Shown here: piece after piece, positions 3,617 through 50,656 of the stretch | How positions within the stretch are numbered: position 1 is the first letter of the stretch | Layout: every line of letters begins with the position of its first letter | Source of the DNA: Methanothrix sp. | GTDB taxonomy: Archaea; Halobacteriota; Methanosarcinia; Methanotrichales; Methanotrichaceae | Length of the DNA stretch: 64,000 bases | Reading direction: 5' to 3' | NCBI GenBank assembly: GCA_037128175.1 | Contig: JBAXWY010000011.1 | Location: 1 to 64,000 of the forward strand | Position numbers and translations under genes: made by a program | The notes under the pieces: generated by a model | Database searches by the model: none | What the model was told of the DNA's origin: nothing | Seen by the model: only the letters and a program-made list of their open reading frames with translations

Positions 3617-3921
3617 GATTTGGATGTATCCAAAAAAGGGACATATTTAGTGGATTATGGAATTCTTTTATCAACATCTTGTGTTTTTACCGAATTTTCA
3701 TCCCACTTACAAATGCCTTGGAATAGTTCTATGTCATTTTTAGAATTCTTCAGTAAAATGTAATAGAATAATGCAGGACTTCGTGTACAAGGGCTAAATG
3801 TATTCACTAACTTTAATTATTAATTCTATTATAATATGAATACAACCGCCAGCTTATTCATCCTGCCTTGAAATCCCGTAAGATGCAGGGGGAGACATTG
3901 CCCTGCATAGGTATGATTGAG

Positions 3922-27067: not shown

Positions 27068-29095
27068 CTATCTTACTTTAGTTCCCGTTTCCACAATTTC
27101 ACGCGGCCGGAGCAGCACGGCCTTGCCGGCTGCATCTGCCGCTAGGAGCATGGCTTGCGACTCGACGCCAAAGAGCTTGGTCGATTTAAGATTGGCCAAA
27201 ACGACCACCTGCGTGCCTACCAGCTCCTCAGCTCTGTAGGCCTCTGCAATGCCTGCCACCACCTGACGAGTCTCGCCACCGATATCGACCAGGAGCTTGA
27301 GCAGCTTTTTTGAGCCCTTAATGGGGCCGGCCTCCTTAATTTCACCTATACGTAAGTCTAATGATCCAAAATTTTCAAAAGAGATTTCACCCTTTTTTTC
27401 AGCCGTTTTTTCTGCTATCTTCCCCTTGACTTCGGCTTTTTCTACCCTTTCTTTAAAGATCCTGTCCAGCTCTTTGACGAAAGCCTCTTCCATGCGTGAG
27501 AAGAGGATCTCGGGAGTGCCGAGCGCTGCCCCTTCCGCCATGGGTTGCAAAGCCTCTTGGAAGTGTTTTTCCGCCACGGATCCTCCCTGGCCCAGTTGCT
27601 TCCAGGCATTTTGCATTTTTAAGGGCATGATCGGCTCCATGAAAATGACCAGCGCCTTGGCGATCTGCAGACAGCTTCTCAGCACGACACCGGCTGCTGC
27701 TTTATCGCTCTTGACCAGTTTCCAGGGTTCGTGGCTCTGGAAGTAGATATTGCCGTAGTCCGCCAGAGTCATCACGCTATCTGCGGCCTTCTTGAACTCA
27801 TACTCTTCCAGGCCGGATACAACCTCATTTAAGGTCTGCTTTATCCTGGCCATGACCTCCTGGTCGATCTCGCCCTGCGGAACAGAGCCCTCGAAGTTCT
27901 TCACGCTGAAGGTCAGGGCGCGGTTGAGGAAGTTTCCAAACGCTCCCACCAGCTCGGTGTTTACCTTATCTGCGAAGATCTTCCAGGCGAAGTTGACCTC
28001 TTTGTTGTGAGCGGTGTAACTGGCCAGATAGTAGCGCAGCAGATCGGGATGAAGTCCCTTTTCCAGGTAATCGTCTTTGACCCAGATGACATTGCCCCGC
28101 GATTTGGAAAACTTCTTGTCATCGATCTTGAGCATGCCGCTGGCCACTACTGCCGAAGGTAGGTTGTACCCGGCTCCTTTGAGCATGGCCGGCCAGAAGA
28201 TACAGTGATGGTAGACGATGTCCCCGCCGATGAAGTGTATGATCTTGGCATCATTCTTCCAATAGGTCTGCCAGTCCCGGCCGTTCTTGGCACACCACTC
28301 CTCGGTGAAGGCGATGTAGCCGATGGGCGCATCCACCCAGACATAGACCACCAGATCGTCGTGTCCGGGAAACTTGACGCCCCAGGCCATATTGCGGGTT
28401 ATGCACCAGTCCTTCAGCTCCTGGCGGACCCATTCCATAGCGTAATTGCGGGCGGAAGAGGTCCCTCCTAAAGTCTCAAGATACGAGAGGAGAAAATCCT
28501 TGAATTCGGAGAGTTTAAAGAAATAATGGATTTGCCTCCGATACTCGGCCTTTCCGCCGCAGACCTTGCAGACTGCGTTTTTGATCTCCCCCGGTTCCAG
28601 ATGACGACCGCAGCCCATGTCGCACTCATCGCCGCGAGCGGGTTTTCCGCAGTAGGGACACTCTCCCTCCACATATCTGTCCGGCAAGAAGCGCTCGCAT
28701 TTGGGACAGAAGGCCAGCTCGATCTCCTTGGAATAAACGTGGCCGCCGTCCATGAGGGCACTGACCATTTCTTGCGTGCGATTGTGGCAGGCGGTTTCGT
28801 CGGTGTCGCCGAAGTAGTCGAAGTCGACGCCCATTCCTTTGAAGACCTCGTCAAAGTGCTGGTGATATTTGGCCACGAGCGCTTTGGGCGTCGTTCCCTG
28901 GGCCTCGGCATTGACCACGATGGGAGTTCCGTGGGCGTCCGTGCCGCAGACGAAGAGCACCTCTTTGCCCATCTTTTTCAACCCTCGAACGAAGATGTCC
29001 GCAGGTACATAAGTTCTTAAATGGCCTAGATGACATGGCCCATTGGCATAGGGTAGGCCGCAGGTTACAAGGATAGGCGATGACAATGAGAACAC
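27068..29095 (-). CDS. metG: Methionyl-tRNA synthetase
   Basis: [12 protein letters not shown], zinc knuckles, KFSKS, C-terminal tRNA-binding OB domain. Confidence 0.97.
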
Positions 29096-29242: not shown

Positions 29243-30241
29243 ATGAGATTAATTGTTCTAACCCTTTTACTGGCTTTGGCCTTGGGCATGGCCCAGGCCG
29301 CGCCGCTGCAGGGCAGCGATGGAAACGCTACAGTCACGTTCTTCGGATCGAGCCGGACGCCTCTGGATGACGAGAATGCTACTCAGGAAATCTTAAATGT
29401 CGATGTCGGCCTAATGGGGACTGAGAATGCCTCATACCAATTGGTGGATGATAAAAATAATATCTACCTGCCCGGCCTGTACAAGCCGCTGTCTTCCGGA
29501 AAGCAGCTTGTTTTATTCCTGGTTCCCAAAGACAGCCTTTTTAAGCTCATAAATGCGACTACTGAGGGCGGAAATCCCATTTACATCAATTGGTGGGCGA
29601 CGCCCAAGGGCAGCAACGAGAACCTGGTGTTAAGGTACTATGGGATCGTTGATTGGCTGATCAATCCGGATGAGCAAGGAATAGTAATTCAGGTCCGCGT
29701 ACAGAATAACGGCACCAAAAACCTCATAGTCAATCCGCAAAATTTCACCCTGCTGGATCAGTGGGGCTGGCCCTACAGTCCCACGGCAGGATTTGATCCA
29801 GTGACGATCGGGCCGCAAGCTGCTACCGACCGTGTCCCGCTAGGTTTTGACGGCGTCTCGCTTATTAGCCGTCCTGCTGCCCTGGCATATGATTATGGGG
29901 CATCAAACCAGATCATCATAATGTTTGAGAGAGACTACGTGCCGCTTTCTGATGTAGCGGTCTATGGCGCCAATGCCACGAAGAGCGCGGCCAGCGTAGT
30001 GCCGGCACCTGCGGCCGTCCTGCCTACCTCGAATCCGGTCGCACAGAACGTGGCCGTGCCGGCTCCGGCTAACGAGACGAAAGAGACCAAGAAACTCTCG
30101 ATCAAGGATAAGTTAGCAGCCAGCAAGGCGCGGCTCGCGGCCACGAAAGTGAGTCTGGATAAAAAGACACCGGATACAAATGGCACAGCGAATAGTACAT
30201 CAAGCAACGCCTCGAATAGCTCATCGAGCATTTCCGCCTAA
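29243..30241 (+). CDS. Secreted hypothetical protein (DUF4352-like Ig domain), paralog of the next gene
   Basis: Signal peptide; VQNNGTKNL...NFTLLDQWGW; many NxT sequons. Confidence 0.65.
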   Translation: MRLIVLTLLLALALGMAQAAPLQGSDGNATVTFFGSSRTPLDDENATQEILNVDVGLMGTENASYQLVDDKNNIYLPGLYKPLSSGKQLVLFLVPKDSLFKLINATTEGGNPIYINWWATPKGSNENLVLRYYGIVDWLINPDEQGIVIQVRVQNNGTKNLIVNPQNFTLLDQWGWPYSPTAGFDPVTIGPQAATDRVPLGFDGVSLISRPAALAYDYGASNQIIIMFERDYVPLSDVAVYGANATKSAASVVPAPAAVLPTSNPVAQNVAVPAPANETKETKKLSIKDKLAASKARLAATKVSLDKKTPDTNGTANSTSSNASNSSSSISA

Positions 30242-30366: not shown

Positions 30367-31299
30367 ATGAGATGGCTGGCTCTGGCACTGTTCATGATCC
30401 TATTACCAGGAATTGCCCAAGATTATCCACTGCAAATGAGCAATGGTGTCGTAAACTGCACTATCTTCGGCTCCTTCAAGGACCCCGGGTTTTCTGGATC
30501 CTCTTATTCCGACTCGTATTCCGTCCTGGTTATAGACACTCGCCTGGCCAGAATAAACGAAAGCGATAACGCACCAATTCGGGCTGCCTACAGCCTCACC
30601 GATGGAAACGACCGGGTTTTTCAAACCAGCGCTCAAAATATAAAAGAATTACAGCCAGGTCGCCGGCTGATTGGTTTTGTCGTCCCCAAGGAGACTATTG
30701 CCAAGAGCCTGACTATAGATTTGTCCCAGGACAAAGCAGGTGGGGAACAGTTCTCGCTTCGTTTTCCCGAGCTTGTCAACTCCAGCAACGAAAATGTGAC
30801 CTTGCTCTATTATGGAGTGCTCAGGTCCAGCACAAACTCCTACAAGAAGACAATTGAATTAGATGTGGCGATAACCAATAACGGCACAAAAAAGCTGGCC
30901 ATTGACGCCAATAACTTCACATTGTTGGACCAGTGGGACTGGAAGTACGACAGCAAAGAGTATGACAACTACGGAAAGAAGGGCATATCTGCCATGGTGC
31001 TTGAGAAAAATGAGACCATTAGATCCGGCCTGATCTTCAACTCCGTCTCGCCGCTCAGCCGACCGGTGGAGCTGGTCTACAGGTATTCCAATAACAGCTC
31101 CCTGACAATGAATATAGATGCCGAGGCTGGCCTTGTTTCTGCCCTACCGGATACGAAGAGCTGCGTTGAATGTGAAAGCCCAAAGGACGCCGCCTCCAGT
31201 CTGGCCGGCTCCATCAAGGCCACCAAAGCTAGGCTTGCCAAAGTCAAGAAGATAAACAGCACAGCAGAGAGCGCTCCCAAAGGGCGGGATGAGCTTTGA
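30367..31299 (+). CDS. Secreted hypothetical protein (DUF4352-like Ig domain)
   Basis: ITNNGTKKL...NFTLLDQWDW; shares SRP..L.Y.Y and KA(S/T)KARLA with the previous gene. Confidence 0.65.
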   Translation: MRWLALALFMILLPGIAQDYPLQMSNGVVNCTIFGSFKDPGFSGSSYSDSYSVLVIDTRLARINESDNAPIRAAYSLTDGNDRVFQTSAQNIKELQPGRRLIGFVVPKETIAKSLTIDLSQDKAGGEQFSLRFPELVNSSNENVTLLYYGVLRSSTNSYKKTIELDVAITNNGTKKLAIDANNFTLLDQWDWKYDSKEYDNYGKKGISAMVLEKNETIRSGLIFNSVSPLSRPVELVYRYSNNSSLTMNIDAEAGLVSALPDTKSCVECESPKDAASSLAGSIKATKARLAKVKKINSTAESAPKGRDEL

Positions 31300-31321
31300 G
31301 TCTTCAGGAAAACGCCATGGA

Positions 31322-32773
31322 TCATCGCACCCTATTTCTGATCATCAAGGAAATGACCAGGGCCATCAGAGAGGCCACAATTCCCAGCAAAACTGCATGG
31401 TGAAAGCCCAAGGCGATTATCTGGGAAGATGCGTGATGTACAGAGGCATCGCCCTGGGTCGTAGCGCTGAAAACGGTCTCGAATAGGGCAATCCCTAATA
31501 CTACTCCCATGTCCCGAGAGGTCATCATAATGCTTGAAGCCAGTCCTTGCTCTTTGGGACACTGGCCCAGTACTATGCTGAGTGTGGGTGGTGCATACAT
31601 ACCGTAGCCTATTCCCATCAGTACCAGGGCAAGGGGAAGCATTATTCTTTGGGAACCGCTCGTGTCCAGGAGGAAGAATAGAAGGAAGGCCAGGAGGGTG
31701 CTGGCGGAGGCGGCCAGGCAGGCAAGTCCTGGACCCAGTCGGTCATAGATGGCTCCTCCAATTGGCGCCGATACTGCAGCAGCAATTGATGCGATCATCA
31801 AGAATAAGCTAGCGACAACTGTCGGGAATCCCAGACCCAGCTCCATATAAAAAGGCAGAACGAATAGGGCTCCCGCAAAGGCCAGCAGCATTAGCAGAGC
31901 CCCTATGTTAGGCAGGACGAAGTTTGGATTTTTGAAAAGATTCAGGTCAACTAAAGGTTGTGGATATCGCCTCTCTCTTATGAGAAATCCAATGGCGCAA
32001 AGAACGGCGAGAGAGAAGGCTCCTACTATCTGGTTAGATCCCCAACCAAGCTGTGTTCCCTGATTCAGACCGTAGATAACCAGGGCCAGACAAGCGAAGA
32101 TCAGGCTTGCCCCGATAAGGTCGAAGCTACCTTTGGTGCGGGGTAGATCACGGGGTAATACCTTATAGCCGATGAGTGCAGCCACAATACCTATTGGAGC
32201 GTTCACCAAAAAAATCCACCGCCATCCAAGGTAGACTGTGAGGAAACCGCCAATAACGGGACCTAGCGCCAGGCCAATGGAGGCGGAGGTTATTACGTAT
32301 CCCAGGGCTCTGCCTCTAATTGCCGTGGGAAGAAATGCTGAAATCATAGCCGGACCTACGGCTACTATTATTCCCCCACCTATTCCCTGAAGGATGCGAA
32401 AGAGGATTATCTCAGCAATCCCAGGGGCCAGGGCACAGAGAAATGAGCCGGTAGCGAAGATCAAGATCCCCCACAGGAAGATCTTTCTAAATCCCAGCAG
32501 GTCTCCCAGCCTGCCGAAGGCCAGAAGAAGGCTGGTTACAGTAAGAAAATAGGAGAGTATTATCCAGGATACCTCTCCCGTACCTACATCGAAGTACCGG
32601 GAGATGGTAGGCAAGGAGATATTGACTATTGTTGTGTCCAGGGTGGCCATAAACATTGATACACAGACGACTAACAGGATGAACGGGAAGGATTTCTCCT
32701 GGGTACGGGTATCGATGATCATGGCACTGTTTTCAATCCCAGCCGTGGCCGGCTCCTCAATTAAGCCGGCCAT
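31322..32773 (-). CDS. MFS DHA2 (EmrB/QacA-like) 14-TM exporter
   Basis: LDTTIVNISLP, GRLGDLLGFRK, GPVIGGFL..WRWIFLVNAPIG. Confidence 0.9.
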   Translation of the reverse strand: MAGLIEEPATAGIENSAMIIDTRTQEKSFPFILLVVCVSMFMATLDTTIVNISLPTISRYFDVGTGEVSWIILSYFLTVTSLLLAFGRLGDLLGFRKIFLWGILIFATGSFLCALAPGIAEIILFRILQGIGGGIIVAVGPAMISAFLPTAIRGRALGYVITSASIGLALGPVIGGFLTVYLGWRWIFLVNAPIGIVAALIGYKVLPRDLPRTKGSFDLIGASLIFACLALVIYGLNQGTQLGWGSNQIVGAFSLAVLCAIGFLIRERRYPQPLVDLNLFKNPNFVLPNIGALLMLLAFAGALFVLPFYMELGLGFPTVVASLFLMIASIAAAVSAPIGGAIYDRLGPGLACLAASASTLLAFLLFFLLDTSGSQRIMLPLALVLMGIGYGMYAPPTLSIVLGQCPKEQGLASSIMMTSRDMGVVLGIALFETVFSATTQGDASVHHASSQIIALGFHHAVLLGIVASLMALVISLMIRNRVR

Positions 32774-32805: not shown

Positions 32806-33390
32806 TTATATCGGTCCTTTAGGTCCTATATTTTGGTACGGGTAATAAGGGTAATCATCGATTACCAATAAGACAGCTCCGAATGTTTCAGGAATAGAAT
32901 TGTCGGCCCTGGAGAGCAGGTCCTTTGCCCATTCGGATTTAAATTCGTAATCATTTAGGATCGACGCCGTGTAAATCAGTGTGCCCTTTGTCTCATCATA
33001 CAGGGGCATGGTCAGCTCCACCACAATCATGTCACTATCTTCTTCTCCATCTCTGAGCATCACCGCGGCATTGGGTGGGTCTCTTGCATCAAAGTTGAAT
33101 CCATTAATGAACTGCTTCATCTCTGCAAACCCGGCATCCCTAGCAGGACGATCTGAGAAGTAAACGGTATACGGAATTACTCCTGTTATTGTCAGCGTGT
33201 AGTTGCCCGACCCGTCCTTCACAAAACTACCGTTTGTCCCTTCCTGTAGGAAGATATAGGTGGTTGTTTCGTTCTCAATAGCATTCTCTGCGGCTGCAAC
33301 ACCGGTATCATTCACACCCGCCTCAGTGCCGGATACTATTCCTGCCAATGCCAAATAGCATAGCATCGAGATCAAAATTGCGCATTTCAT
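32806..33390 (-). CDS. Secreted FSDRP-motif protein, paralog C (Cys-free tail)
   Basis: Signal peptide, FLQEGTNGSF..YFSDRPARDAG..PPNAA..VIDD, then YPYYPYQNIGPKGPI; GGAGG RBS. Confidence 0.8.
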   Translation of the reverse strand: MKCAILISMLCYLALAGIVSGTEAGVNDTGVAAAENAIENETTTYIFLQEGTNGSFVKDGSGNYTLTITGVIPYTVYFSDRPARDAGFAEMKQFINGFNFDARDPPNAAVMLRDGEEDSDMIVVELTMPLYDETKGTLIYTASILNDYEFKSEWAKDLLSRADNSIPETFGAVLLVIDDYPYYPYQNIGPKGPI

Positions 33391-33608
33391 ATGACACGCC
33401 TCCGTCCAACTCATTTAAGGTTACTACTATTTTAATCGTTGATAATTATGAACATATATGTCTTATGCTGTGCAAGGTAGGAGCAAGAAGGAGTTTCAGG
33501 AGCTGCTGAAATGCCGGAAGCGTCTCGACTACTGCTCGGGGTAAAGCGGCAGGACTCGGTAGCTTGCACCGGCTGGGGGCAAGGAAAAAAAAGAATTATA
33601 GGTGAATT

Positions 33609-34235
33609 TCAGTTGCCACAACAACCGCCACAAGGTCTACAGAAATATTCATGCCAGCAGCTATCACTCCATTTTGAGTCACACGTTCCATAGGGTATAC
33701 AGGGACAGTCATCAATCACAAGGAGCACCTTTCCGAACGTCTCTGGAATAGACTTATCAGCCCGGATGAGCAGGTCTTTTGGCCACTCGGATTCAAACGC
33801 ATAATCGTCGAGGAGCTTCGCCGTATATGTCAGCTTATGGTTTGTCTCATCATACTGGGGCATGGTCAGCTCCACCACGACCATATCGTTCGTTTCATCA
33901 CCCTCTTCGATCATTATCGCAGCATTGGGCGGGTTATTGGGATCAAAGCTGAATCCATCGAGGAACTGCTTCATCTGTGCAAACCCGGCATCCCTTGCAG
34001 GACGGTCTGAGAAGAATACGGTATACGGAATCATTCCTGTGATGGTCAAAGTATAGTTTCCCGACTCGTCTTTCACAAAACTACCGTTAGTTCCTTCCTG
34101 GAGAAAGATGTGGGTTGATGTCTCATTCAAAATAGCTTCCGCGGCACCGGTCTGATTCGCAGATGTCTCAGTGCCGGATACAGCTCCGATCCAAGCCAAA
34201 CAACACAATATCGAAATTGATACAATCCATTTCAT
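33609..34235 (-). CDS. Secreted FSDRP-motif protein, paralog B (8-Cys tail)
   Basis: Same body; tail CPCIPYGTCDSKWSDSCWHEYFCRPCGGCCGN. Confidence 0.8.
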   Translation of the reverse strand: MKWIVSISILCCLAWIGAVSGTETSANQTGAAEAILNETSTHIFLQEGTNGSFVKDESGNYTLTITGMIPYTVFFSDRPARDAGFAQMKQFLDGFSFDPNNPPNAAIMIEEGDETNDMVVVELTMPQYDETNHKLTYTAKLLDDYAFESEWPKDLLIRADKSIPETFGKVLLVIDDCPCIPYGTCDSKWSDSCWHEYFCRPCGGCCGN

Positions 34236-34280
34236 ACCATTCACCTCTCCTTCTTACGTGCTCAGGATTATACAGAGCCC

Positions 34281-34910
34281 TTAGCAGCAGCTACCACACT
34301 TACGACAGCCAACTTCTTTCGCATTCCAGCAGCTGTTTTGCCACCACGAATTGCAGTAATGCAATGCGGGCACACAGGGACAGTCGTCAATTACGAGCAA
34401 GACCTTTCCAAAAGTCTCCGGAATCGCTTTATCAGCCCTGATGAGCAGGTCCTTTGCCCATTCGGATTCAAACGCATAATCATCGAGTTTCTTTGCCTTG
34501 TATGTCAGCTTGTGGTTTGTCTCATCGTACTGGGGCATGGTCAACTCCACCACGACCATATCGTTCTCTTCGTTGCCCTCTTGGAGCATTACCGCAGCAT
34601 TGGGCGGGTTATTGGGATCAAAGCTGAATCCGTCGAGGAACTGCTTCATCTGTGCAAAGCCAGCATCCCTAGCAGGACGGTCCGAGAAGTAAACAGTATA
34701 CGGAATCACTCCTGTGATGGTCAGCGTGTAATTGCCCGACTCGTCCTTCACAAAACTGCCGTTCGTTCCCTCCTGGAGAAAAATGTGGGTTGATGTCTCA
34801 TTCTCAATAGCTTCCAAGGTACCGGTCTGATTAGCATCTGCCTCTGCACCAGACACGGCCCCAATCCAAGCTAAACAACATAGCATTAAGATTGAAATAG
34901 CCCATTTCAT
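34281..34910 (-). CDS. Secreted FSDRP-motif protein, paralog A (8-Cys tail)
   Basis: Same body; tail CPCVPALHYCNSWWQNSCWNAKEVGCRKCGSCC. Confidence 0.8.
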   Translation of the reverse strand: MKWAISILMLCCLAWIGAVSGAEADANQTGTLEAIENETSTHIFLQEGTNGSFVKDESGNYTLTITGVIPYTVYFSDRPARDAGFAQMKQFLDGFSFDPNNPPNAAVMLQEGNEENDMVVVELTMPQYDETNHKLTYKAKKLDDYAFESEWAKDLLIRADKAIPETFGKVLLVIDDCPCVPALHYCNSWWQNSCWNAKEVGCRKCGSCC

Positions 34911-35127
34911 ACGACACACCTCTGTCAACCTTACACAAGGTTACTCCTATGAGTAATATAAGGTTTCATCATTCTATACCTATATATATTGTGCTGTGTG
35001 AAATGTGGCGGTGCCGGGCATCAAGACCAAAAAGGATACAGTCGTTAAAGGAGAATCTGAATGAGTCAAATCGATTCTCGAAATTAGCAGTTGTGTTCAC
35101 CAATATTTAATAATACTATTAGGACCA

Positions 35128-37251
35128 GTGTCAATTATCCAGAGCGAAAAAATGAAAATAACTGGCTATACCCCATATGCAAATATGATCATAATGGCAT
35201 TAATAGTATGCCTCCTAATCCATTATAACTTGCTATCCCCTGCTGTTTATGGTTTAGATGCAGATGATAATTCAAGTATCAATTATGAGAGAGAAAATCT
35301 GAAATTTGATGCAATCGAGAGCGTGAATGGAACTGGATTCACAAACGTAAGACAGAGTATGGATAATTCAGAGAGCGCAATATTATACATCCGAAAGATG
35401 GGCAGCGGTTCCTATTCGAGCAGCGGCATATCCGAATACAATTCCGTAAACGAGAGCGAAGAGAACGATGACCAGGATAGCGAGATTAGTGAGGATGATT
35501 TCTTCGATGGCTATCCTGATTACAACTTAATATCTTTGAAAAATGCAAATCATTCGGCGGCCTATACTAGAACCTCCCTGTCTCTGCCTCACCAGCGAAC
35601 TCTGCATTTTGATGCCAGATGGTCTGATGTCACAATTGGCTCCAGCATTGAGTCGGATACGTCTTTTCTGGACTGCATCAGGTATGCCACAAAAATAAAC
35701 AAGACTGCAAATCTGATTATTGACGATACCGATGCGCATTTCGAATCTGCTGCAAAATTTCGGGGAACGGCAGATATTCGGTATCAATCGCAGATCAGCA
35801 ATTATCATGAAATATATAGCGGGACGGTGGAGGTCTCTCATGATATCTCTTCTAATGAGTCTGTTTCTTCAGCTACGGGATTAGGTTTCGCTGATATCGA
35901 CAAAAAGATAAGCCGTAACGGAGTTCTGAGGACCTACGAGAAAGGCAGCGGCAATTTTTCCCTTGATGAGATTATAAATCCGGAAGAAGACTATATCGCC
36001 ATGAACCTCAAAGTAGCATATTTGCCCGCAAATCTCGATGTTAATGCAAAGAATTCCCTGAATATATCGGCAAAATGGAGAGCGGGATTAATCACCAAAG
36101 AGAAGGATGTAGGACAGATAAGCGAGAGATTTACAAACCTGGTGGCGATGAAGAAGAATACGACCATTCCTCGACTCGTCAGTGTCCAAACAGAGGCTGA
36201 TTTCTCAGGCAAGGGCGAATTCATGATGTCAGCAGAGAATCTTACAAGCATCGAGGAATACACAGGTAATTACACTATTCGAAGGAATGCGACCATCGAG
36301 ATATTCCCGATATACAGAAAACCGCATATTTCAGTAACCGAGATTGCGCATCTCGATTCCATTGGCTGCAGAATCGCTACCTATAACATAACAGTTCTGA
36401 ACGATGGAAATAAAGAAGTTGGGCCGATCTATGTTCATGATACATTTCCGGTAGGCACCTCCTTCATAGAGTCCTCAGCTATGCCCATCGCAAAGACCTC
36501 GCGCCACGCAAACTGGTCCATCGATCACCTACTATCCGGCGAGTCAACCAGCATCGAACTGGTTTTGGGAATTGAAAGTCGTGTCGAGAAGCTCACCAAC
36601 CGGGTAAAGGCCACCGGTTACTATCTGGACGAAGAGGATGAGCTGCTTAGTACTAAATCGCAATACAATTCAACAATCCGTGTTAATCCGAGTGCATGCA
36701 ATTATAGCGCAGTATCCGTCTTGATGAGGGCCACCAAGGATCCTGCCTATCCCAGCCGAATAAACTACAGCGTTACCATCCAGAACAACAGAGCAAGCCG
36801 CTTGAATCTTGATCTCACCTGCATGCTACCCTCGGGCGCAATGCTATTGGATACGCCGGAAAAGCCGGAGAAAATCGAGGCGAATAATCTAACCTGGTCC
36901 TTTTACTTGGAATCAGGAAAGAGGAAAACGATAAGCTACAAAGTGGACGCCAAGGGATGCGGAATAATCCTGAGCAGGGCAATTATTCAGGCAAAGTCGG
37001 AAGATGGGAAGGTGCAATTTGCCGGGGGGAGTAACATAACTGTATTTGTGCGAAATTCCAAGGACATATTTGTCGAAAGGGTCATTGACGACTGGCTGCC
37101 TGGAGGTTTGATTGAACTGCCGGGAACGATTTATGGAAACACTCCATGTCCATGCGCCTTGAATCCGAATGAGACGAGAATTGCGCCTCTGCCGAAAGTC
37201 GAATTGGTTCATGCAAATCGTGGATACGATCCAGACCTATCTTGTTGCTGA
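35128..37251 (+). CDS. Secreted DUF11-domain surface protein
   Basis: N-terminal TM/signal, repeated GSG.(Y/F)S units, YNITVLNDGNK..VHDTFPVGTSFIES, C-terminal CPC..CC. Confidence 0.65.
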   Translation: MSIIQSEKMKITGYTPYANMIIMALIVCLLIHYNLLSPAVYGLDADDNSSINYERENLKFDAIESVNGTGFTNVRQSMDNSESAILYIRKMGSGSYSSSGISEYNSVNESEENDDQDSEISEDDFFDGYPDYNLISLKNANHSAAYTRTSLSLPHQRTLHFDARWSDVTIGSSIESDTSFLDCIRYATKINKTANLIIDDTDAHFESAAKFRGTADIRYQSQISNYHEIYSGTVEVSHDISSNESVSSATGLGFADIDKKISRNGVLRTYEKGSGNFSLDEIINPEEDYIAMNLKVAYLPANLDVNAKNSLNISAKWRAGLITKEKDVGQISERFTNLVAMKKNTTIPRLVSVQTEADFSGKGEFMMSAENLTSIEEYTGNYTIRRNATIEIFPIYRKPHISVTEIAHLDSIGCRIATYNITVLNDGNKEVGPIYVHDTFPVGTSFIESSAMPIAKTSRHANWSIDHLLSGESTSIELVLGIESRVEKLTNRVKATGYYLDEEDELLSTKSQYNSTIRVNPSACNYSAVSVLMRATKDPAYPSRINYSVTIQNNRASRLNLDLTCMLPSGAMLLDTPEKPEKIEANNLTWSFYLESGKRKTISYKVDAKGCGIILSRAIIQAKSEDGKVQFAGGSNITVFVRNSKDIFVERVIDDWLPGGLIELPGTIYGNTPCPCALNPNETRIAPLPKVELVHANRGYDPDLSCC

Positions 37252-37369
37252 TTGCGTGACTTCCTATTCATCTTGTATCTTCGTTCGAAATCCTCTAATA
37301 GTAACAGACGATAATTATGATAGATCTATTTAAAAAAAAGGAGGGTTTGATATCAAACAATCTACTATT

Positions 37370-39166
37370 ATGATTAGAACAGTTTGTGCCATCTGCATCA
37401 TTTTGGCTCTTTCTATTCCGGTGTTAGGATGCACGACATTTGGCATAACCAAATCTGCTTCAGCCGATGGATCTGTTTTTGTGGGGCACAGCAACGATGG
37501 CTTTGGACCGGCGGATATTGCCGGCATCATCAAAGAGGATGTGGTGACGTTCTCCTATGTCCCTGCTCAGAATTTCACGCCAGGGTCAAAGCGTCCCATT
37601 CCCTATGATCCAAACAGCGGCGGAGAATTCCGGGGAAGCGGCGCGACATCGGATGTTGATGAGATTATCATTGGCAATATCAGTCAGGTGAATCATACCT
37701 ATGGCTACCTTACCGGCTCGTATGGGATGATCAACGAACATCAGCTTATGTCTGGAGAATGTACGGATTACGCGAAAATCCACCCGGATGCAGAGCAAGG
37801 CAAACGGATCTTTTACAGTTCGGAACTGTCAAACATTGCATTGGAGCGATGCAAGACTGCCAGAGAAGCAGTTGAATTAATAGGATCACTAATCGATGAG
37901 TACGGATACTACGGGACGGGGGAGACACTGATCTTTGGAGATACAACCGATGTCTGGGTTATAGAGATGTGCGGAGGGACACCATCAGGCACTGGTGGAT
38001 ACTGGGTAGCACAGCGCGTTCCAGACGGCCAGGTTTTCGTTGCCGCTAACGAGTTTCGAATCAGGGAAATCGAGGCCAATAATCCCGACCAGATATTTTC
38101 TAAGAATCTATTTAGCGATGCTGAGAAGATGGGATGGTGGAATCCTGACAACGGCTCCCTTGACTGGACGATAACCTTTAGCGCCGGCGAGTATTCTCAT
38201 CCATATTATTCCCTTGGCCGGGTATGGCGCATCTTCGACAAAATCGCACCCTCGCAAAATCTGTCTCCCTATGTGGAAGGACCTTTCACCACTACCTATC
38301 CCTTCTCTATAGTCCCGGACAGGCTGATCAATATCACGGAGGCGTTAAATCTCTACCGGGATCATTATGAGAGTACCGAATTTGATCTGACAATGCCGCC
38401 TGCCGGAGGGCCATTTGGCAATCCGTACCGAAGCTGGGGACCCTACGATTCGCATGACCGGTTAAATCCGGGTGAACTCAAGCCTGGAGCCTGGCCAAGG
38501 CCCATCTCCACCGATCCATGCGGCTACTCGTATGTAGCTCAGGCGAGAGATTGGATGCCGGACTGTATTGGCGGAATATGCTGGCTTGGGCTCTCTTCAC
38601 CTGCGGAGACCTGCTACGCGCCATTTTATGCTGGAATCACAAAGCTTCCTGCTCCATATCTGAATGGATCGCATTGGGATTTTGACTTAGATACTGCATT
38701 CTGGCCTTTTGAGATGGTGCAGAATTGGGCCAGACTGATGTATGTGGAGATGATTCCAGTCATCAAGGCAGAACAGGTGCGTCTCGAGGGCGGTGCACTT
38801 GCTCGGCAAGCAGACATTGAGCTGCAGGCTGGGGATCTATACAAGAAAGACGAGTTCTTAGCTCGTGCATTTCTGACAAATTATACGAATTCCACGTCGA
38901 TAGAGAACCTCGAGAGCTGGAAGGTGCTCTTTGAAAAACTGGTTGTCACCTATCGCAATGGGCAGTATAACGATGTTCAGAATCAGACGATAACGAATAT
39001 AGGTTATCCCGATTGGTGGCTTGAGTATGCAGAGTACCAGTATGGTCCGAGAGTATATGATGTCCAATCCCTGCGGGAGATTCCAGGAGTCAAGTATTCC
39101 GGCAAAACCGTAAATATCACCTCAATGGATCCCATCGCCTATATTAGGGAGAACCAAACCAAATAA
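37370..39166 (+). CDS. Secreted C69-family (Ntn-hydrolase) dipeptidase
   Basis: Signal peptide followed by CTTFGITKSASADGS..HSND; MINEHQLMSGECT; ALERCKTAREAV; WVAQRVPDG. Confidence 0.85.
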   Translation: MIRTVCAICIILALSIPVLGCTTFGITKSASADGSVFVGHSNDGFGPADIAGIIKEDVVTFSYVPAQNFTPGSKRPIPYDPNSGGEFRGSGATSDVDEIIIGNISQVNHTYGYLTGSYGMINEHQLMSGECTDYAKIHPDAEQGKRIFYSSELSNIALERCKTAREAVELIGSLIDEYGYYGTGETLIFGDTTDVWVIEMCGGTPSGTGGYWVAQRVPDGQVFVAANEFRIREIEANNPDQIFSKNLFSDAEKMGWWNPDNGSLDWTITFSAGEYSHPYYSLGRVWRIFDKIAPSQNLSPYVEGPFTTTYPFSIVPDRLINITEALNLYRDHYESTEFDLTMPPAGGPFGNPYRSWGPYDSHDRLNPGELKPGAWPRPISTDPCGYSYVAQARDWMPDCIGGICWLGLSSPAETCYAPFYAGITKLPAPYLNGSHWDFDLDTAFWPFEMVQNWARLMYVEMIPVIKAEQVRLEGGALARQADIELQAGDLYKKDEFLARAFLTNYTNSTSIENLESWKVLFEKLVVTYRNGQYNDVQNQTITNIGYPDWWLEYAEYQYGPRVYDVQSLREIPGVKYSGKTVNITSMDPIAYIRENQTK

Positions 39167-41629: not shown

Positions 41630-42432
41630 TCACCATACAAAGATCGGCAGAGTATTACTGAAGCCGGAAACGCTACCCCAAATTGCGCACATGTGCCATC
41701 CTTTTGTATCCGCATAGAATGTAGATGGAATGAATCCTGGCCCCATATATCCCCAGAATGTCCATTGTGGGAAGCTGTTGGAGTCGTATCCCCATAGATT
41801 TTGCCATTGGTTATTTTTTACAATAAGATTCATCTGTTGGAATTGTGAGACGCCTGAAGGCCCCATGGTCCACATTCCATTGTAAAGGGCCCACATCCTG
41901 ATCCCGCTGGGTTTTGGTGGTGATAAGAGTTGTCGAGAATAAATATAATATGGATTGGAGGAAAGGCCATTTGCATATTCGGATTGGCCTGATGCACCAT
42001 TAGATTCGGATTGTGGCTCAGAACCGAAAGAAGAAATTATGTCCTGCTTTCTAGGACTTGCTTTTCCCCCGTAGTGGCTACTATGTTCCCCGTATTTGCG
42101 GATGGCTCAAATGCAGGAATTTCGGCCTGTGGTCCTTGTGCGGGATGGTCTAGACCAGCCGATGTCCCTGCTTCATTATATGGACTTTCAGTTGGCGTTT
42201 GGACCGGAGGCCAACTTCCAAATATTGAATTCATGTCGGGTATGCCGCTCGTGGGACTATTTGGATCGGCACTGGACGATGTACTGCCGGGATTACTCGG
42301 CCAGATAACCGGTGGTATGTTTGGCATACCTCCCGGATCATATGTGGGTATGCTCGGAAATGCCGTGCCTATTGCCACGATTAATACCATGGTAGCAATT
42401 ATTAAAAAAATTTTCTTCAATTGGTTTGCCAT
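41630..42432 (-). pseudogene. Secreted Pro/Ser-rich protein with Trp-rich C-terminal domain, split by a frameshift
   Basis: Signal peptide from ATG 42432 stops at 42037; another frame is open from about the G5A4 run (42061-42070) through QDIISSFG..MWALYNG to 41630. Confidence 0.6.
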
Positions 42433-42611
42433 ATCGATTCTCTTCGAAATCTTCGACGCAACTTTTGTTCGAATTATTCTCTGCACGTGAATCACGCCAT
42501 GAGACATACGCTCGAAAGGACATGATTTGCCATAGAAAAAAAGGATATTCTTTATGCGACACATGGATGAATTTCATATGAATTATCCTTTTTCCCTAAA
42601 TGATGTTAATA

Positions 42612-43301
42612 TCACACTGGGCCCGAGAGTCGAATGTTATTTACAGATACTTCTGCTGGAAATCCTGATGGAACATTCATATAAACATCGTCCCAATAGT
42701 CATATACACCATTGCCATTTACATCGAAGAAGCAAAGGCCTGGACCCGGAAATGTCACTGAGATGGGGGCCCCAAATACTAGGTTTAAGTCAGGCTCAAA
42801 ATCGTGCACTTTGGTTCCCGGCTTCAATCCTGTTCCTACAGTTGCATTTAACCTTACATCATTAACAACACTATTTGGACCGGCTTGGCTGAAATAAACC
42901 GGATCCATTAAATCATAGAGCGGACTTCCGAAAAGGTTAAGAAAACGAATTGCTTTGGTTGGCGGAAAAAAAGCCAATGGCATTCCAATATCATTATCTA
43001 CAGGAGTTACCTTTGATCCTGCCGGAAGATTCCCAAAAGGAGTCAGCCTCAGGTCATTAGCTGTAGAAAAAAATCCAGGTAGCACTTTAATATAAACAAC
43101 ATCAGTATCATCATATCCGGGTACAACTCCCGTATCCCAGAAGCGGATGTCTGTAGTAGCAGGCATCGCGAATAGCGGTCTTCCAATATCCTTATCTACT
43201 GCAAGTACTTTTGTTCCGAATTGATATTCTGAAGCCCCAACCAAGCCCAAAATCAAATATAGGCTAATAACCATGGCCACAGTCTTTGTGCTCAATCTCA
43301 T
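42612..43301 (-). CDS. Secreted protein with three (D/N)xxGxYD..D.VY..N(D/N).RL repeats (putative Ca-binding)
   Basis: FWDTGVVPGYDDTDVVY, FLNLFGSPLYDLMDPVY, FFDVNGNGVYDYWDDVY. Confidence 0.7.
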   Translation of the reverse strand: MRLSTKTVAMVISLYLILGLVGASEYQFGTKVLAVDKDIGRPLFAMPATTDIRFWDTGVVPGYDDTDVVYIKVLPGFFSTANDLRLTPFGNLPAGSKVTPVDNDIGMPLAFFPPTKAIRFLNLFGSPLYDLMDPVYFSQAGPNSVVNDVRLNATVGTGLKPGTKVHDFEPDLNLVFGAPISVTFPGPGLCFFDVNGNGVYDYWDDVYMNVPSGFPAEVSVNNIRLSGPV

Positions 43302-43450
43302 ACACTTTCCTCCTCAAGATATTACTACGAATACTACGGTTATTGAGGTATTAATAGATTTTTAAATTTATATAGTTAATATTATCTAAGAAGTATTCTC
43401 AAATAAGCTTAACATTGCTAAATTAAAAAGAGAAGTATATCCCGTCTATT

Positions 43451-44512
43451 TTACAGGATTGGCCCAGAGAGGCGCACATTATTTACCGTCACAAGGCCCT
43501 TCGACACGCCAGCAGGCACATTCAAGTATACATCGTCTTCGTAGTCATAGACTCCGTTGCCGTTTACATCGAAGAAGCCCATCTTTGTAGTATCTGTGGC
43601 AGGTCCAAGGAAGCTCGCTAAGGGTGGCCAAGATACCAATTTATTTTGATCTGCGTGAAAATTCGTAACCTTTGTCCCTGCGATCAGATTTCCCATTGAG
43701 CTCAATCTAACATCATTGGTTTGGATAAACTGAGCAGAAGGATCTTTCCACCTACTACCAGTAGATCCATCATCCTGGCTAGAGTCATCAGCTACCATTT
43801 TTGGGATTTGAATCTTTATGAGCCAGGTTCCAAGAACGTGATAATAGTCTGCCTTTAAGCCGCGAACCACTTCAATGGCCAGTCCCCGCATTTCGCCAAC
43901 TTTCCTTGGCCTTTTATCGAGGATTTTATCCGAAATGAACAATTTATAATTATCTGTAAATAGGGCATAACTTAAACCATGCGAATAGATCTCTCTGCCT
44001 CTGTAGGGAAGGCGCTCGCTAAAGCCTGTCATCATATTGGCAGAATTTTCAGAATCGTCAAGATAAGAATAATCATCATTGGGAAAATGGTGCAGGTAAA
44101 CAGGATCATCGAGATCGTATGCGCGGCTGCCATGCAGATCCAGAAAGCTGATTATCGAAGGCAGCTGCTTTATCGGCTTATTCATATCATAATCATGAAA
44201 TGTCACCTTTGATCCGGGAGACGCATTAGCAAAAAAAGTCAGTCTTACGTCGTTGGCGTTGGTTGTGCCGCTGGCAGAAGGCCCGATGTGCAGATAAACC
44301 GGGTCTCCTTCATCATATCCGGGAGTTCCGATATCCCAAAAGGCCATAGTTGTCTCAGCCGAAAGAGGAAAAAGGGGTCTGCCTATATCAGATTGATTCG
44401 GCAAGACTTTGCTGCCGAAAGGATAACCCGAACTGCTTGCTGGACTTAGCATCACGATTATGCTTGCCAATAAAAGTGTCCATATCAAGCTCTTCCTTTC
44501 CTGCACAAACAT
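43451..44512 (-). CDS. Paralog of the previous gene with an inserted domain of about 120 aa
   Basis: Same three repeats plus an insert containing FTDNY..KRPRKVG..ADYYHVLGT. Confidence 0.7.
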   Translation of the reverse strand: MFVQERKSLIWTLLLASIIVMLSPASSSGYPFGSKVLPNQSDIGRPLFPLSAETTMAFWDIGTPGYDEGDPVYLHIGPSASGTTNANDVRLTFFANASPGSKVTFHDYDMNKPIKQLPSIISFLDLHGSRAYDLDDPVYLHHFPNDDYSYLDDSENSANMMTGFSERLPYRGREIYSHGLSYALFTDNYKLFISDKILDKRPRKVGEMRGLAIEVVRGLKADYYHVLGTWLIKIQIPKMVADDSSQDDGSTGSRWKDPSAQFIQTNDVRLSSMGNLIAGTKVTNFHADQNKLVSWPPLASFLGPATDTTKMGFFDVNGNGVYDYEDDVYLNVPAGVSKGLVTVNNVRLSGPIL

Positions 44513-44820
44513 CCGCTCACTCCTCCCATTTCATTCCATTAACAATTATTGAGCTTTAACTATTAATATTTTATTATATTTTTTATCAAATATACATTAA
44601 TTATAATTCGGATGTTGCGGTTCTATTCAGGGAGATTGATGGAAATTATGGCCACATAAACAATCTGGCCGCTGAAAAGGCCACTGCCATAGCTCGTGCC
44701 AATTGAGGGAATCGTCCCCGAAAATTTGGCTTTCACCTATGAGTGGAACAGCAACGTCGCACCCGCACAGTTCTGCTCTGGGCCATGCAAGGGGCCGCCA
44801 CTGTTTCACCGAATAATTTT

Positions 44821-44963
44821 TTTACCGTAACAATGTTTTTCGACACACCAGCAGGCATATTCAAGTATACATCGTCTTCGTAGTCATAGACTCTGTTGCC
44901 GTTTACATCAAAGTAGCCCATCTTTGCGCTACCTGTTGCCTGTCCAAGGAAGCTCGCTAAGGG
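44821..44963 (-). repeat. Orphan 143-bp copy of the 3' end of 43451..44512
   Basis: 17 mismatches over 143 bp versus 43482-43624 (manual count). Confidence 0.8.
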
Positions 44964-45066
44964 AGGCACATTAGCAATTAATAAAATATCTATAATAATA
45001 TAATAGATAAGTATTTATACTATGGGTTCATTATATTAAAGAGACATATCGAAAGGTGATGGGAAT

Positions 45067-45564
45067 ATGGACGGGCAAGTCATTATTATTGTATTAATCG
45101 CGTCTAGTCTTTTGCTAGTGTCAAGCTTGTCTTTAGCTCAAGACTATTATCCGGAAGCTACAGATTCCATATACGATCCGGAAGCTACAGATTCCATATA
45201 CGAAAATAGTTTTGAAAATAGTTATGATGGACAATTCTGTCAATCATACGACGGAAGCTGCTCAAATACAAAGAGAATGTTTCATGAAAGACCGTCTTAT
45301 ACTGGAGATACTGATTGGCTGCCCAAAAGTTCAATTTGTTTAATCTATTCAGATAACTATAGATGGATCGTTCACGATTACAGGATTGATCGTCGTCCCC
45401 TTCGCGTTGGAACAAGTAGTTGCAAACCTATCGAATTGATTCGTTGTTATTACGCAGATTATTATCACATACTAGGAACATCATTAGTAATGTCTACTCC
45501 GAACCCTGAAAAAATTTGTCTCAAAGATGCTCCATTAAAATGCAGGAACTGTAGTCCTTCTTGA
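45067..45564 (+). CDS. Secreted Cys-rich protein homologous to the insert domain of 43451..44512; contains a 27-bp tandem duplication (45149-45202)
   Basis: YSDNY..RRPLRVG..IELIRCYYADYYHILGT; PEATDSIY occurs twice. Confidence 0.65.
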   Translation: MDGQVIIIVLIASSLLLVSSLSLAQDYYPEATDSIYDPEATDSIYENSFENSYDGQFCQSYDGSCSNTKRMFHERPSYTGDTDWLPKSSICLIYSDNYRWIVHDYRIDRRPLRVGTSSCKPIELIRCYYADYYHILGTSLVMSTPNPEKICLKDAPLKCRNCSPS

Positions 45565-45875: not shown

Positions 45876-46554
45876 TCACTCGATTTTCTTTCTTTTGGGC
45901 GTCTCAGCCTTCTCAAGTTCTTCTTGCTTTTTGGCCTGGATCTTCTTGATGCTTTCCGCCTTCGGTAAATCTTCGGGCATTGTGCCTCCCAATTCCTGGA
46001 TGGTTTGTCGTACTTTTTGGCCGACTTTACGATGTGTCAGGTTCGCCGCGTCTTTCCCCAACACCCCATCCCTGCGCAGTTTTTCCTCAGCCTGGGTTGC
46101 ACGAAACAGGTTTGCCGCCAATTCCGTGCTGCCTATGTGATCTAGAATCTTCTGGCTCTTTTTCAAGCATTTTCGCCGGTGGATGTCTTCCTGTTTCAGT
46201 CCGCCGTAAAGCCCCACCATGCGCTACGATTTCCTTTTTGGGATCGGCGTTCTGGATAGCCAGGTAGCAGGCATAACGAGAAAGCAACGTAACCTTAATT
46301 TCCCGGCTTGCGCCACTCCCAATCTCGACCATTTTGCTAATGTCAGCAAAATGGTCCTCAATGCGATGCCCACTGTTAAAACACGCCAGCTTGGCCTTCT
46401 CGATCACGGCCTCGAAATTGCGGTATTGCGTGTATTCCAGAACCTCGGCCAGATCGCGGCTTTCCCAATACTCGTTATTCGCATCATTCGTCCGCTTTAT
46501 CCGCTCGAAAGGCGACAGAAGGCCCCCGGGGGCTTTCTTTATTTCTTTGCTCAT
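45876..46554 (-). pseudogene. dinD: DNA damage-inducible protein D with internal deletion and frameshift
   Basis: EYWESRDLAEVLEY..LSRYACYLAIQNADPKKEIVAHG joined out of frame to GLYGGL..ILDHIGSTELAANLFRATQ. Confidence 0.85.
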
Positions 46555-49600: not shown

Positions 49601-50597
49601 CGGTAGTCTTGCCTGCTACATCATGGAAAGAATATCCGGTGATGGCAAAAAACCCATCATTGACTTCGATGATTCTTCCGTCTGATGCTTTGGTAATGGT
49701 GATGGCATAAGATGCAGAGCGAAATGCGGATGAGAATTTTTCCTCGCTTATCTTGAGTGCTTCTTCCATCCGTTTGCGCTCAGTTATGTCGCTAAGATAG
49801 TTCAAAATGGCCGGTTTTCCGTTCCAGTCAATCAAGACCGCATCGATCTCCACCCACCGGATGCTTCCCGTTTTGGTTATCAACCGGAACGAAAATCTGG
49901 ATTTGTAAAGATCACCCTTCAAGCCCGAAAGATAGCGCTGTACCACCATATCCCGGTCTTCCGGGTGGATGAATTCGATAAAAGGCCTTGATGTGAGTTC
50001 CTGCTCCGAATAGCCGGTTATCCTGCCACTCGTGCGATTAACGAACTTGAGCATGCCCTCTTGAGCAACGAAGATGGTTTCGTTAGCGTTTTCCACAAGC
50101 AGTCGGTATATCTCCTCAGAGTTTCGCTGCGCTTCTTCGGTTAGCTTGCGTTCAGTGATATCGCTTGTAGTGCCAAAGATGCCGACCCGTCCCTCAGGCT
50201 GGGAATAAGCCGTGCCCTTGGAACGAACCCAAAGCGTCGTGCCGTCAGCCTTTCGCATCCGGTATTCTGCGGTTTTATCTTTGCCAATCGTTCCTAAACC
50301 TTCGGAAATTATCTTCTGCACATCAGGCAAGTCATCGGGATGGACATAGGAAAAATATTTGTCAAAGCTGTTTCCGATGGTGCCGTCCGGCAACCCCAGC
50401 ATTCTGTCCGCAACCGGTGAGATGTAGGAGCCGACTGGCTCGCCTTTGCCATTGACATCATAGCGCCAGACTATATCGGATATCATCGATACGACCTGCT
50501 CGTACTGGGCCTGGCTGTTCTCGGCAGCCTGCTTGGCTTCTCGCAAAGCTTCCAGAACCACTCTCTGGTTGATGATGTCATTGCCCATGATTTGCAC
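46644..50597 (-). CDS. Hybrid sensor histidine kinase: about 7 PAS/PAC domains, HisKA, HATPase, receiver
   Basis: Seven DIT(E/S/D)RK PAC ends; [15 protein letters not shown]; [10 protein letters not shown]; DTGIGI; GGTGLGLAI; [13 protein letters not shown]. Confidence 0.93.
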
Positions 50598-50656
50598 TTA
50601 TGAATTGTTCTGATTGATAGATCTGTTGGAGGATCGAATCTTTCAAAATTAGTGCA

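Follow-up and report, generated by a model that had tools for sequence, protein, structure and literature searches.

What would a methanogenic archaeon gain from neighbouring genes whose products are almost the same protein up to a fixed point and quite different proteins beyond it? The question is raised by a stretch of 64,000 nucleotides of Methanothrix sp. DNA (contig JBAXWY010000011.1, positions 1 to 64,000, called here the window), in which three head-to-tail open reading frames (ORFs) on the minus strand, listed at 34928..34281, 34244..33609 and 33414..32806, encode the paralogs that we call A, B and C. The answer that we favour, with a probability of about one half, is that a conserved carrier body displays or delivers a variable, cassette-like, disulfide-knotted tail, and that this tail gives each protein its specificity.

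In each of the three reading frames an in-frame ATG, at 34910 for A (the upper end of the range given in the initial annotation of this DNA), 34235 for B and 33390 for C, is taken as the true start because a GGAGG-like site precedes it and because database relatives start there; the relative P0001, 97% identical to A, begins at the same ATG. The proteins open with MKW or MKC and are built alike, with a Sec-type signal peptide (judged by eye; that of A reads MKWAISILMLCCLAWIGAVSGA and continues with EA), a short linker carrying two conserved N-x-T sequons and a body of 134 residues that ends with VIDD. Over their whole length B and C are 83% and 70% identical to A in the alignment of the three paralogs; the block from IFLQEG to VIDD is near-invariant, and past VIDD the divergence is sharp. 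The tails of A and B share the framework C-x-C ... C ... C-W ... C-x-x-C-x-x-C-C (type 1), and the tail of C belongs to a class that is also found in relatives, in P0146 and, in related form, in Rhizobium. The initial annotation had described three tandem paralogs with a common signal peptide and body that split abruptly after VIDD into two 8-Cys tails of 32-33 residues and one Cys-free YPYYPY tail, and the paralog alignment agrees with it on each count.

B starts 45 nucleotides past the stop of A, and C has an upstream region of its own of 194 nucleotides. The 14-nucleotide motif AAGGTTACTMCTAT occurs twice in the window (33417 and 34937), only upstream of A and of C, against about 0.02 occurrences expected; this count was reached in 0 of 100 shuffles. 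On the gene strand the similarity between the two upstream regions runs from this motif through to the ATG, which supports the earlier proposal that A and C would have been duplicated along with their 5' region. The source genome (98 contigs, 99.8% complete) holds a fourth paralog outside the window, on the minus strand of contig C15 at 49743-50612 (positions 3744-4613 of locus L106), with a tail that is different again: it is of type 2, has 12 cysteines, contains CNVCH and runs into a Pro/Lys-rich extension ending EKANEIKYPYKPPTTS. Ends of the form ..EKTNE(V/I)KYPY.. and HPIK or GPIK repeats recur in the relatives P0042, P0060, P0095, P0096 and P0098.

The first body of evidence for a cassette-like tail is the uncoupling of the two parts. 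Among 81 Methanotrichaceae proteins with CxC-type tails, which form 3,240 pairs, the identity of the bodies and that of the tails are weakly correlated (r=0.29). Where the bodies are at least 90% identical (59 pairs), the tails reach a median identity of 0.46, and some tail types retain 76-84% identity on bodies that share 59-72%, the B-type tail being 81-84% identical across bodies of 66-72% identity. A tandem pair in the Methanocrinis genome L003 is 100% identical over 519 nucleotides, from inside the signal peptide to ..GAT GAC TGC CC, and divergent from there on. The synonymous divergence (pS), computable for 17 within-array pairs, one further pair being unparsed, lies at 0.39-0.86 in the tails and 0.00-0.44 in the bodies; in all 17 the tail has the higher value. 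The comparison of body and tail by the ratio of non-synonymous to synonymous divergence (dN/dS), which the initial annotation had put forward, gives pairwise values of 0.07-0.24 for bodies and 0.09-0.69 for tails, none of them above 1. The tails being the more diverged at synonymous sites and dN/dS staying below 1, the abrupt divergence is therefore not simply the result of fast amino-acid change. As far as these sequences tell, the tails have an older or separate genealogy than the bodies, as would be expected from gene conversion of the bodies or from tail swapping at the junction, and each tail type, once in place, appears to be under purifying selection. The polymorphic-tail architecture first read from the window alone is thereby borne out by its relatives.

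The point at which the two histories part is itself conserved, the IDD-C junction being invariant in the Methanotrichaceae set and near-invariant in the bacterial set, and the bacterial contigs L031 and L034 also carry tandem copies with unlike tails. Six-frame motif scans of the genome found no orphan tail cassettes or free-standing tails elsewhere. On the metagenome contig L080 (5482-5733) a B-like copy is cut to an ORF of 83 residues in which one frame cysteine has become arginine (..GSRWHQ..), and from this reduced copy it follows that arrays lose copies too.

The second body of evidence is the behaviour of the cysteines, which come and go as pairs. An even number of cysteines is found in 95% of the 90 type-1 tails and 88% of the 102 type-2 tails examined, and eight Cys columns are invariant across 15 tails. 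In an alignment of 88 type-1 tails made without any pairing assumption, columns 30 and 71 both hold cysteine in 56 tails, neither does in 29 and 3 are discordant; for columns 35 and 57 the figures are 80, 8 and 0. A strict Cys frame fitted 54 of 93 tails, the remaining 39 not being counted; wherever there is an extra cysteine inside the frame, the number of extra cysteines after the terminal CC is odd (35/35), and tails without one have none after the CC either (19/19). The body is Cys-free in 88 of 97, 113 of 125 and 101 of 103 members of three sets, counted over those that the motif rule could parse, and the median tail has 10 cysteines. Because cysteines are gained and lost in pairs, their counts are even and the body lacks them, we read them as disulfide-forming: the tail would hold four to six disulfides, all of them internal.

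The same cysteines might instead bind metal. The tails, with their CPC, CxxC and CC motifs, would then be extracellular ligands of Ni, Co, Zn, Cu or Fe-S, and the major facilitator superfamily (MFS) transporter encoded next to the array would move the metal or its chelate. CPC and CxxC motifs are indeed present, the tail of the fourth paralog has CNVCH, the genome is without a Dsb or VKOR oxidase, and many bacterial relatives have signals for twin-arginine translocation (Tat), which exports folded and often cofactor-loaded proteins. We nevertheless hold metal binding to be very improbable, as the cysteines change strictly two at a time (8, 10, 12), a pattern expected of disulfides more than of metal sites with four ligands, relatives have R, S, K, G, T or N where CxxCH has its His, about 11% of the tail residues are aromatic, the linkage to the MFS gene is not conserved, and the paralogs in the window have Sec-type signals, the Sec pathway passing unfolded chains. 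The initial annotation had spoken of a disulfide- or metal-stapled peptide; the first half of that description gains from the paired cysteines, the even counts and the Cys-free body, and the second half loses by them. A c-type haem site at the CxxCH of type-2 tails was also considered and rejected, the His not being conserved and its position holding H or any of the six residues just named. Compared with described classes, the tails have the fixed Cys framework, the variable loops and, as read from covariation, the paired cysteines of Cys-rich peptides; they have neither the Cys ligand sets nor the conserved CxxCH of metallothioneins and metal-cluster proteins.

The other partner, the body, appears to be an autonomous domain, because some members stop a few residues after IDD and others bear tails of another kind, such as Tyr/Pro tails; rare fusions join the body to pentapeptide repeats or, in one distant member and in place of the Cys tail, to PI-PLC-X. 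The AlphaFold2 model of A, with a predicted local distance difference test score (pLDDT) of 83 and a predicted template modelling score (pTM) of 0.77, gives a beta-rich body. The median number of N-x-S/T sequons is 5 in archaeal members and 0 in the bacterial sets, and A, B, C and the copy on contig C15 are probably N-glycosylated.

How far does this domain extend beyond Methanothrix? At E<=0.01 a word-indexed search retrieved 154 relatives, few of them with an organism name, which is then Methanothrix or Methanocrinis. Ninety-five of them were aligned (alignment A2), and the resulting profile, searched against 1.84 billion cluster representatives, matched 3,588 protein clusters at E<=1e-3, 1,563 at E<=1e-10 and 165 at E<=1e-30. 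Many of the best 150 matches have twin-arginine or lipoprotein-like N-termini, and their common body motifs are F-x-Q, FSDRP, NPPNAA and LFIDD, followed by a Cys-rich tail. A query with one bacterial member added 296 matches, the sole named one being from an uncultured Thermomicrobiales bacterium and having a Tat signal, and a diverged body annotated as 'hypothetical protein' lies on 11 Rhizobium or Ensifer megaplasmids. The family is thus very large, unnamed, present in bacteria and archaea and mostly not archaeal, and the idea of an archaeal system, with which the locus had been introduced, does not survive this search. Within the Methanotrichaceae its distribution is patchy: it was found in 22 of 105 genomes, or 16 of 64 of high quality, each carrier having 1-5 matches, and it is spread over 5 of 16 genera. 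Three of the scanned genomes with copies (G023, G074 and G099) are closed or nearly so; in an even sample across the phylum, 9 of 401 genomes have the family. The distant homolog on plasmid pR132502 of Rhizobium leguminosarum WSM1325 (L107, 4815-5501) has the body, then a Gly/Ala-rich hydrophobic stretch and the end PYYYHPPCGYYPYPPCY, whose Tyr/Pro composition resembles the YPYYPY tail of C; its gene, flanked by an OmpA-family gene and one with an LssY C-terminal domain, lies downstream of a gene for a 'cysteine rich repeat' protein.

The family has gone without a name in every library that we searched. Pfam and NCBIfam models do not match A, B or C, and Pfam has no family name for 26 distant members, nor for all 95 members of alignment A2 at E<=1. 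A sequence profile search of the PDB found no relative (best E=1.8), the ESM Atlas returned 'hypothetical' clusters, a TAT_signal label and a weak lead to DUF6916 at 0.76 and so no name, and phage records gave no match to the family. Literature searches, judged from titles and abstract openings, found no paper on it. To that extent the claim that the system is undescribed holds for the domain family, the type of tail, the absence of immunity and maturase genes and the occurrence in a methanogen. The principle itself, a conserved part and a variable module meeting at a fixed motif, is already known from polymorphic toxins and from venom and defensin precursors.

The precursors of animal and plant conotoxins and defensins consist of a signal, a conserved region and a short C-terminal part in which the Cys frame is fixed and the loops are hypervariable, and they form multigene tandem families with many tail variants. 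The likeness in the order of parts suggests that the body could be, as the initial annotation had it, a pro-domain or folding carrier, a protease cutting after IDD to free a knotted antimicrobial or signal peptide of 30-45 residues. All cysteines lie beyond the junction, so that a freed peptide would be self-contained, the IDD-C boundary is sharp and invariant, and several tail types are kept together and are present in RNA libraries. We consider release of this kind unlikely all the same. Neither a dibasic site nor any other known processing site is seen at the junction, and genes for a protease, a maturase or immunity do not recur beside the paralogs. The body shows conservation across archaea and bacteria, invariant polar residues included, and also exists without a tail, which one would not usually expect of a mere pro-region. 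It is a folded domain, able to stand alone. The tails, with a net charge of -3 to +5 (median +1), are not the cations that defensins are, nor uniformly cationic, and they match no defensin, knottin or toxin model in Pfam; 14 tails searched there gave nothing better than E=0.12, all far below cut-off, and no Cys-rich family or toxin domain. Their variety would stem largely from a separate genealogy, through recombination, and a dN/dS above 1 is not seen. The word 'defensin-like' used for them in the initial annotation is therefore an analogy and no more.

Two bacterial systems invite a similar comparison. In the CdiA-CT and Rhs polymorphic toxins, of which the former act in contact-dependent inhibition (CDI), the motifs VENN or PxxxxDPxGL mark the border between a conserved N-terminal portion and a C-terminal module that varies, much as IDD-C does here, and modules are exchanged by recombination at that point, as they would be in the present family. 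The differences are that no immunity gene follows the tails of the array, in which the gaps are only 45 nucleotides (A to B) and 32 nucleotides (C to the MFS gene), that the genome has no orphan tail cassettes, that Sec or Tat signals take the place of a dedicated secretion system, and that the tails are putative Cys knots of 30-80 residues and not enzymatic toxin domains. Precursors of ribosomally synthesised and post-translationally modified peptides (RiPPs) of the prochlorosin type, with their NHLP or Nif11 leaders, likewise combine a long conserved N-terminal part with many unlike Cys-rich cores per genome. A, B and C, however, match neither NHLP nor Nif11 and do not fit precursors of the SCIFF/ranthipeptide type either, no LanM, radical SAM or YcaO enzyme is found around the array in the window or in related loci, and Sec or Tat signals on a folded body misfit a modification guided by a leader in the cytoplasm.

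The gene that follows C on the same strand had been proposed as an export or immunity partner. Its position, given earlier as about 30 nucleotides past the last paralog, is 32 nucleotides past the stop, and its assignment to the DHA2 transporters holds, with 258.8 bits against a cut-off of 230.2 for TIGR00711 (DHA2/EmrB) and 2e-58 for Pfam MFS_1; the likeness to DHA2 efflux transporters of the EmrB/QacA type is that of a neighbour gene only. Of 13 genome loci, two (L002 and L010) have a homolog of this MFS gene adjoining the family. In the nearest related locus, L001, whose proteins reach 90% identity, four copies are flanked by the same DUF11 and DUF4352-like genes as the array in the window, and there is no MFS gene. 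The metagenome contig L080 is arranged similarly, a 470-residue ORF, a candidate MFS, occupying the corresponding position; at L008, with its five copies, the opposite strand carries a sugar-type MFS gene that is unrelated. The MFS gene is a local neighbour and not a conserved part of the system, and a Sec-exported protein needs no MFS exporter.

No other gene takes its place. The remaining neighbours are housekeeping genes that differ between the 13 genome loci, and among 78 bacterial metagenome loci (45 of at least 4 kb), scanned with the narrower alignment A6, no neighbour cluster occurs in more than 3; neither set has a recurring maturase, protease, immunity gene or dedicated exporter. What does recur is secreted and of surface type, namely a DUF11 protein and two DUF4352-like proteins. 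The loci L001 and L005 also have the DUF11 protein next to the family, and L013 has it in a weaker form. The C-terminus of this protein, ..ERVIDDWLPGG.. followed after about 20 residues by ..CPCALNP..SCC, is conserved in the L001 and L005 orthologs and contains VIDD and CPC elements reminiscent of the paralog junction.

Such neighbours suggest another use of the tails, which would cross-link the protein to the envelope, in Methanothrix the sheath, through disulfides or aromatic contacts, their variety being due to pressure from viruses or epibionts. The CPC...SCC end of the recurring DUF11 protein, the Rhizobium homolog between OmpA-family and LssY-type genes, the Pro/Lys-rich extensions ending KYPY on some tails and the high density of sequons in archaeal members all agree with an anchoring role. 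It seems to us distinctly unlikely, and rather more so than release as a peptide: cysteines that covary in pairs within one tail point to internal and not intermolecular bonds, the paralogs lack both a membrane anchor and any C-terminal sorting signal known from archaea, and the patchy distribution of the family misfits an essential part of the envelope.

The features of the locus are collected in Table 1. Apart from them, a small ORF with a BRO-N domain (2.6e-10) lies at 46087-46554 on the minus strand, amid ORFs without a family match (42037-45564), a region that may be a virus or mobile-element remnant; the G+C content is 0.39-0.44 over the DUF11 gene (35000-37500) and 0.50-0.57 in the housekeeping flank at 28000-29000.

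Table 1. Features of the array and of its surroundings, in window coordinates.
Feature	Position	Strand	Remarks
Paralog A	34281..34910	-	209 residues from ATG 34910; stop 34283-34281
Paralog A, signal peptide	34845-34910	-	about residues 1-22
Paralog A, linker	between signal peptide and body	-	NQT and NET sequons
Paralog A, body	34383-34784	-	residues 43-176; Cys-free
Paralog A, tail	34284..34382	-	CPCVPALHYCNSWWQNSCWNAKEVGCRKCGSCC; 33 residues, 8 Cys, type 1
Paralog B	33609..34235	-	208 residues from ATG 34235
Paralog B, body	33708-34109	-	
Paralog B, tail	33612..33707	-	CPCIPYGTCDSKWSDSCWHEYFCRPCGGCCGN; 32 residues, 8 Cys, type 1
Paralog C	32806..33390	-	194 residues from ATG 33390
Paralog C, body	32854-33255	-	
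Paralog C, tail	32809-32853	-	YPYYPYQNIGPKGPI; 15 residues, 0 Cys, YPYYPY type
5' motif upstream of A	34937..34950	-	ATAGGAGTAACCTT on the gene strand; 27-40 nucleotides before the ATG of A
5' motif upstream of C, second copy	33417..33430	-	ATAGTAGTAACCTT on the gene strand; before the ATG of C
DHA2/EmrB-type MFS transporter gene	31322..32773	-	32 nucleotides downstream of the stop of C
DUF11-repeat secreted protein	35128..37251	+	707 residues; divergent from the array
Two paralogous secreted proteins	29243-30241 and 30367-31299	+	weak DUF4352 matches; flank the array here, in L001 and in L010
Peptidase C69 family protein	37370-39166	+	1.2e-51; hydrophobic N-terminus; just past the DUF11 gene; also next to the L002 copy

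A and B are present in RNA libraries. Four metatranscriptome runs, which belong to a single study and stem from no more than two samples, contain contigs that agree with 33614-34944 but for 0-1 differences; one of 696 nucleotides (33927-34622) covers the spacer between A and B, and the contigs end at 34939-34944, about 30 nucleotides upstream of the ATG of A, at the shared 5' motif. They also cover both DUF4352-like genes, with little or no cover on the MFS gene (31202-32669) and none on most of the DUF11 gene; as contig cover cannot rank genes, these differences are not used as evidence on co-transcription.

Several observations weigh against a disulfide-knotted, exchangeable tail on a common carrier. 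The first concern the knot itself. The genome, although 99.8% complete, has no match to VKOR, DsbA or Thioredoxin_4 and offers only membrane proteins of the CcdA/DsbD type, so that extracellular disulfide formation in an obligate anaerobe is left unexplained, and the Tat signals used by many bacterial members would also suit a cofactor-binding tail. The tail may lean on the body and not be independent, as its pLDDT is about 88-93 in the full-length model of A and 58 in a tail-only AlphaFold2 model built from only 15 sequences; a complex prediction of the body (residues 37-170) with a 39-residue tail alignment gave mixed scores of 0.39, 0.22 and 0.15 against a mark of 0.32 and favours neither side. 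For the body no clear counterpart among known folds emerges, a Foldseek search of the PDB with the full model of A giving no match at E<=1e-3 and the best VIA-align hit, with a Z of 6.7 (4qxz_B; 90 aligned residues, root-mean-square deviation 2.9), lying among generic beta barrels; the rows of these fold searches mostly cover residues 40-181 and barely sample the tail. As to the uncoupled histories, L003 is a metagenome-assembled genome in which the 519-nucleotide identity could in principle be an assembly effect, and the higher pS of short, divergent tails may partly reflect alignment error; the pattern of L003 is repeated in the independent proteins P0017 and P0020, whose bodies are 94% and tails 61% identical. 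Finally, contigs from RNA libraries do not prove transcription, its level, its strand or the structure of an operon. The CcdA/DsbD_TM-type loci of the genome are four in number (C21:31528-32070, C8:28474-29019, C47:11144-11869 and C21:39391-40122).

The model that we propose for a carrier with an exchangeable, specificity-giving tail combines these elements as follows. A, B, C and the copy on contig C15 would be secreted through Sec as two-module proteins, their own signal peptide being sufficient for export. The first module, the conserved, Cys-free and beta-rich body of about 134 residues, would serve as a common carrier or presentation domain. The second, directly after the ..IDD-C junction, would be a self-contained mini-domain closed by four to six internal disulfides, its Cys frame constant and its loops hypervariable. 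A genome would hold several full-length tandem copies, each with a different tail, and either the bodies would be homogenised within the array by gene conversion or the tails would be exchanged as cassettes, the recombination boundary lying at the junction in both cases. The tail, whether it stays on the body or is released, would be the end that determines specificity for a variable extracellular target, the surface of another cell or a ligand, through binding or antagonism.

A wider view, which we advance as speculative and doubtful, would make of this family a prokaryotic counterpart of the venom and defensin superfamilies, in which an ancient carrier domain folds, exports and presents or releases libraries of knots shuffled at the IDD-Cys boundary. 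Methanogens and soil bacteria would use these libraries in antagonism or in the recognition of partners such as syntrophs, epibionts or viruses, and Methanothrix would form the bonds by an oxidation route that dispenses with DsbA and VKOR.

If the carrier model is true, a family of several thousand clusters that had neither name nor model becomes a defined pair of modules, a carrier body and a cassette-like disulfide knot. Small, stable and naturally diversified knots on a common carrier would then be of interest as binding scaffolds, and disulfide-like Cys pairs in an obligate anaerobe without recognisable DsbA or VKOR pose a biochemical problem that can be tested. Methanothrix is a globally important acetate-using methanogen, and to our knowledge little has been learnt of its dealings with partners, epibionts and viruses. 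Variable secreted knots that are present in environmental RNA libraries would, if the model is true, offer a handle on these interactions.

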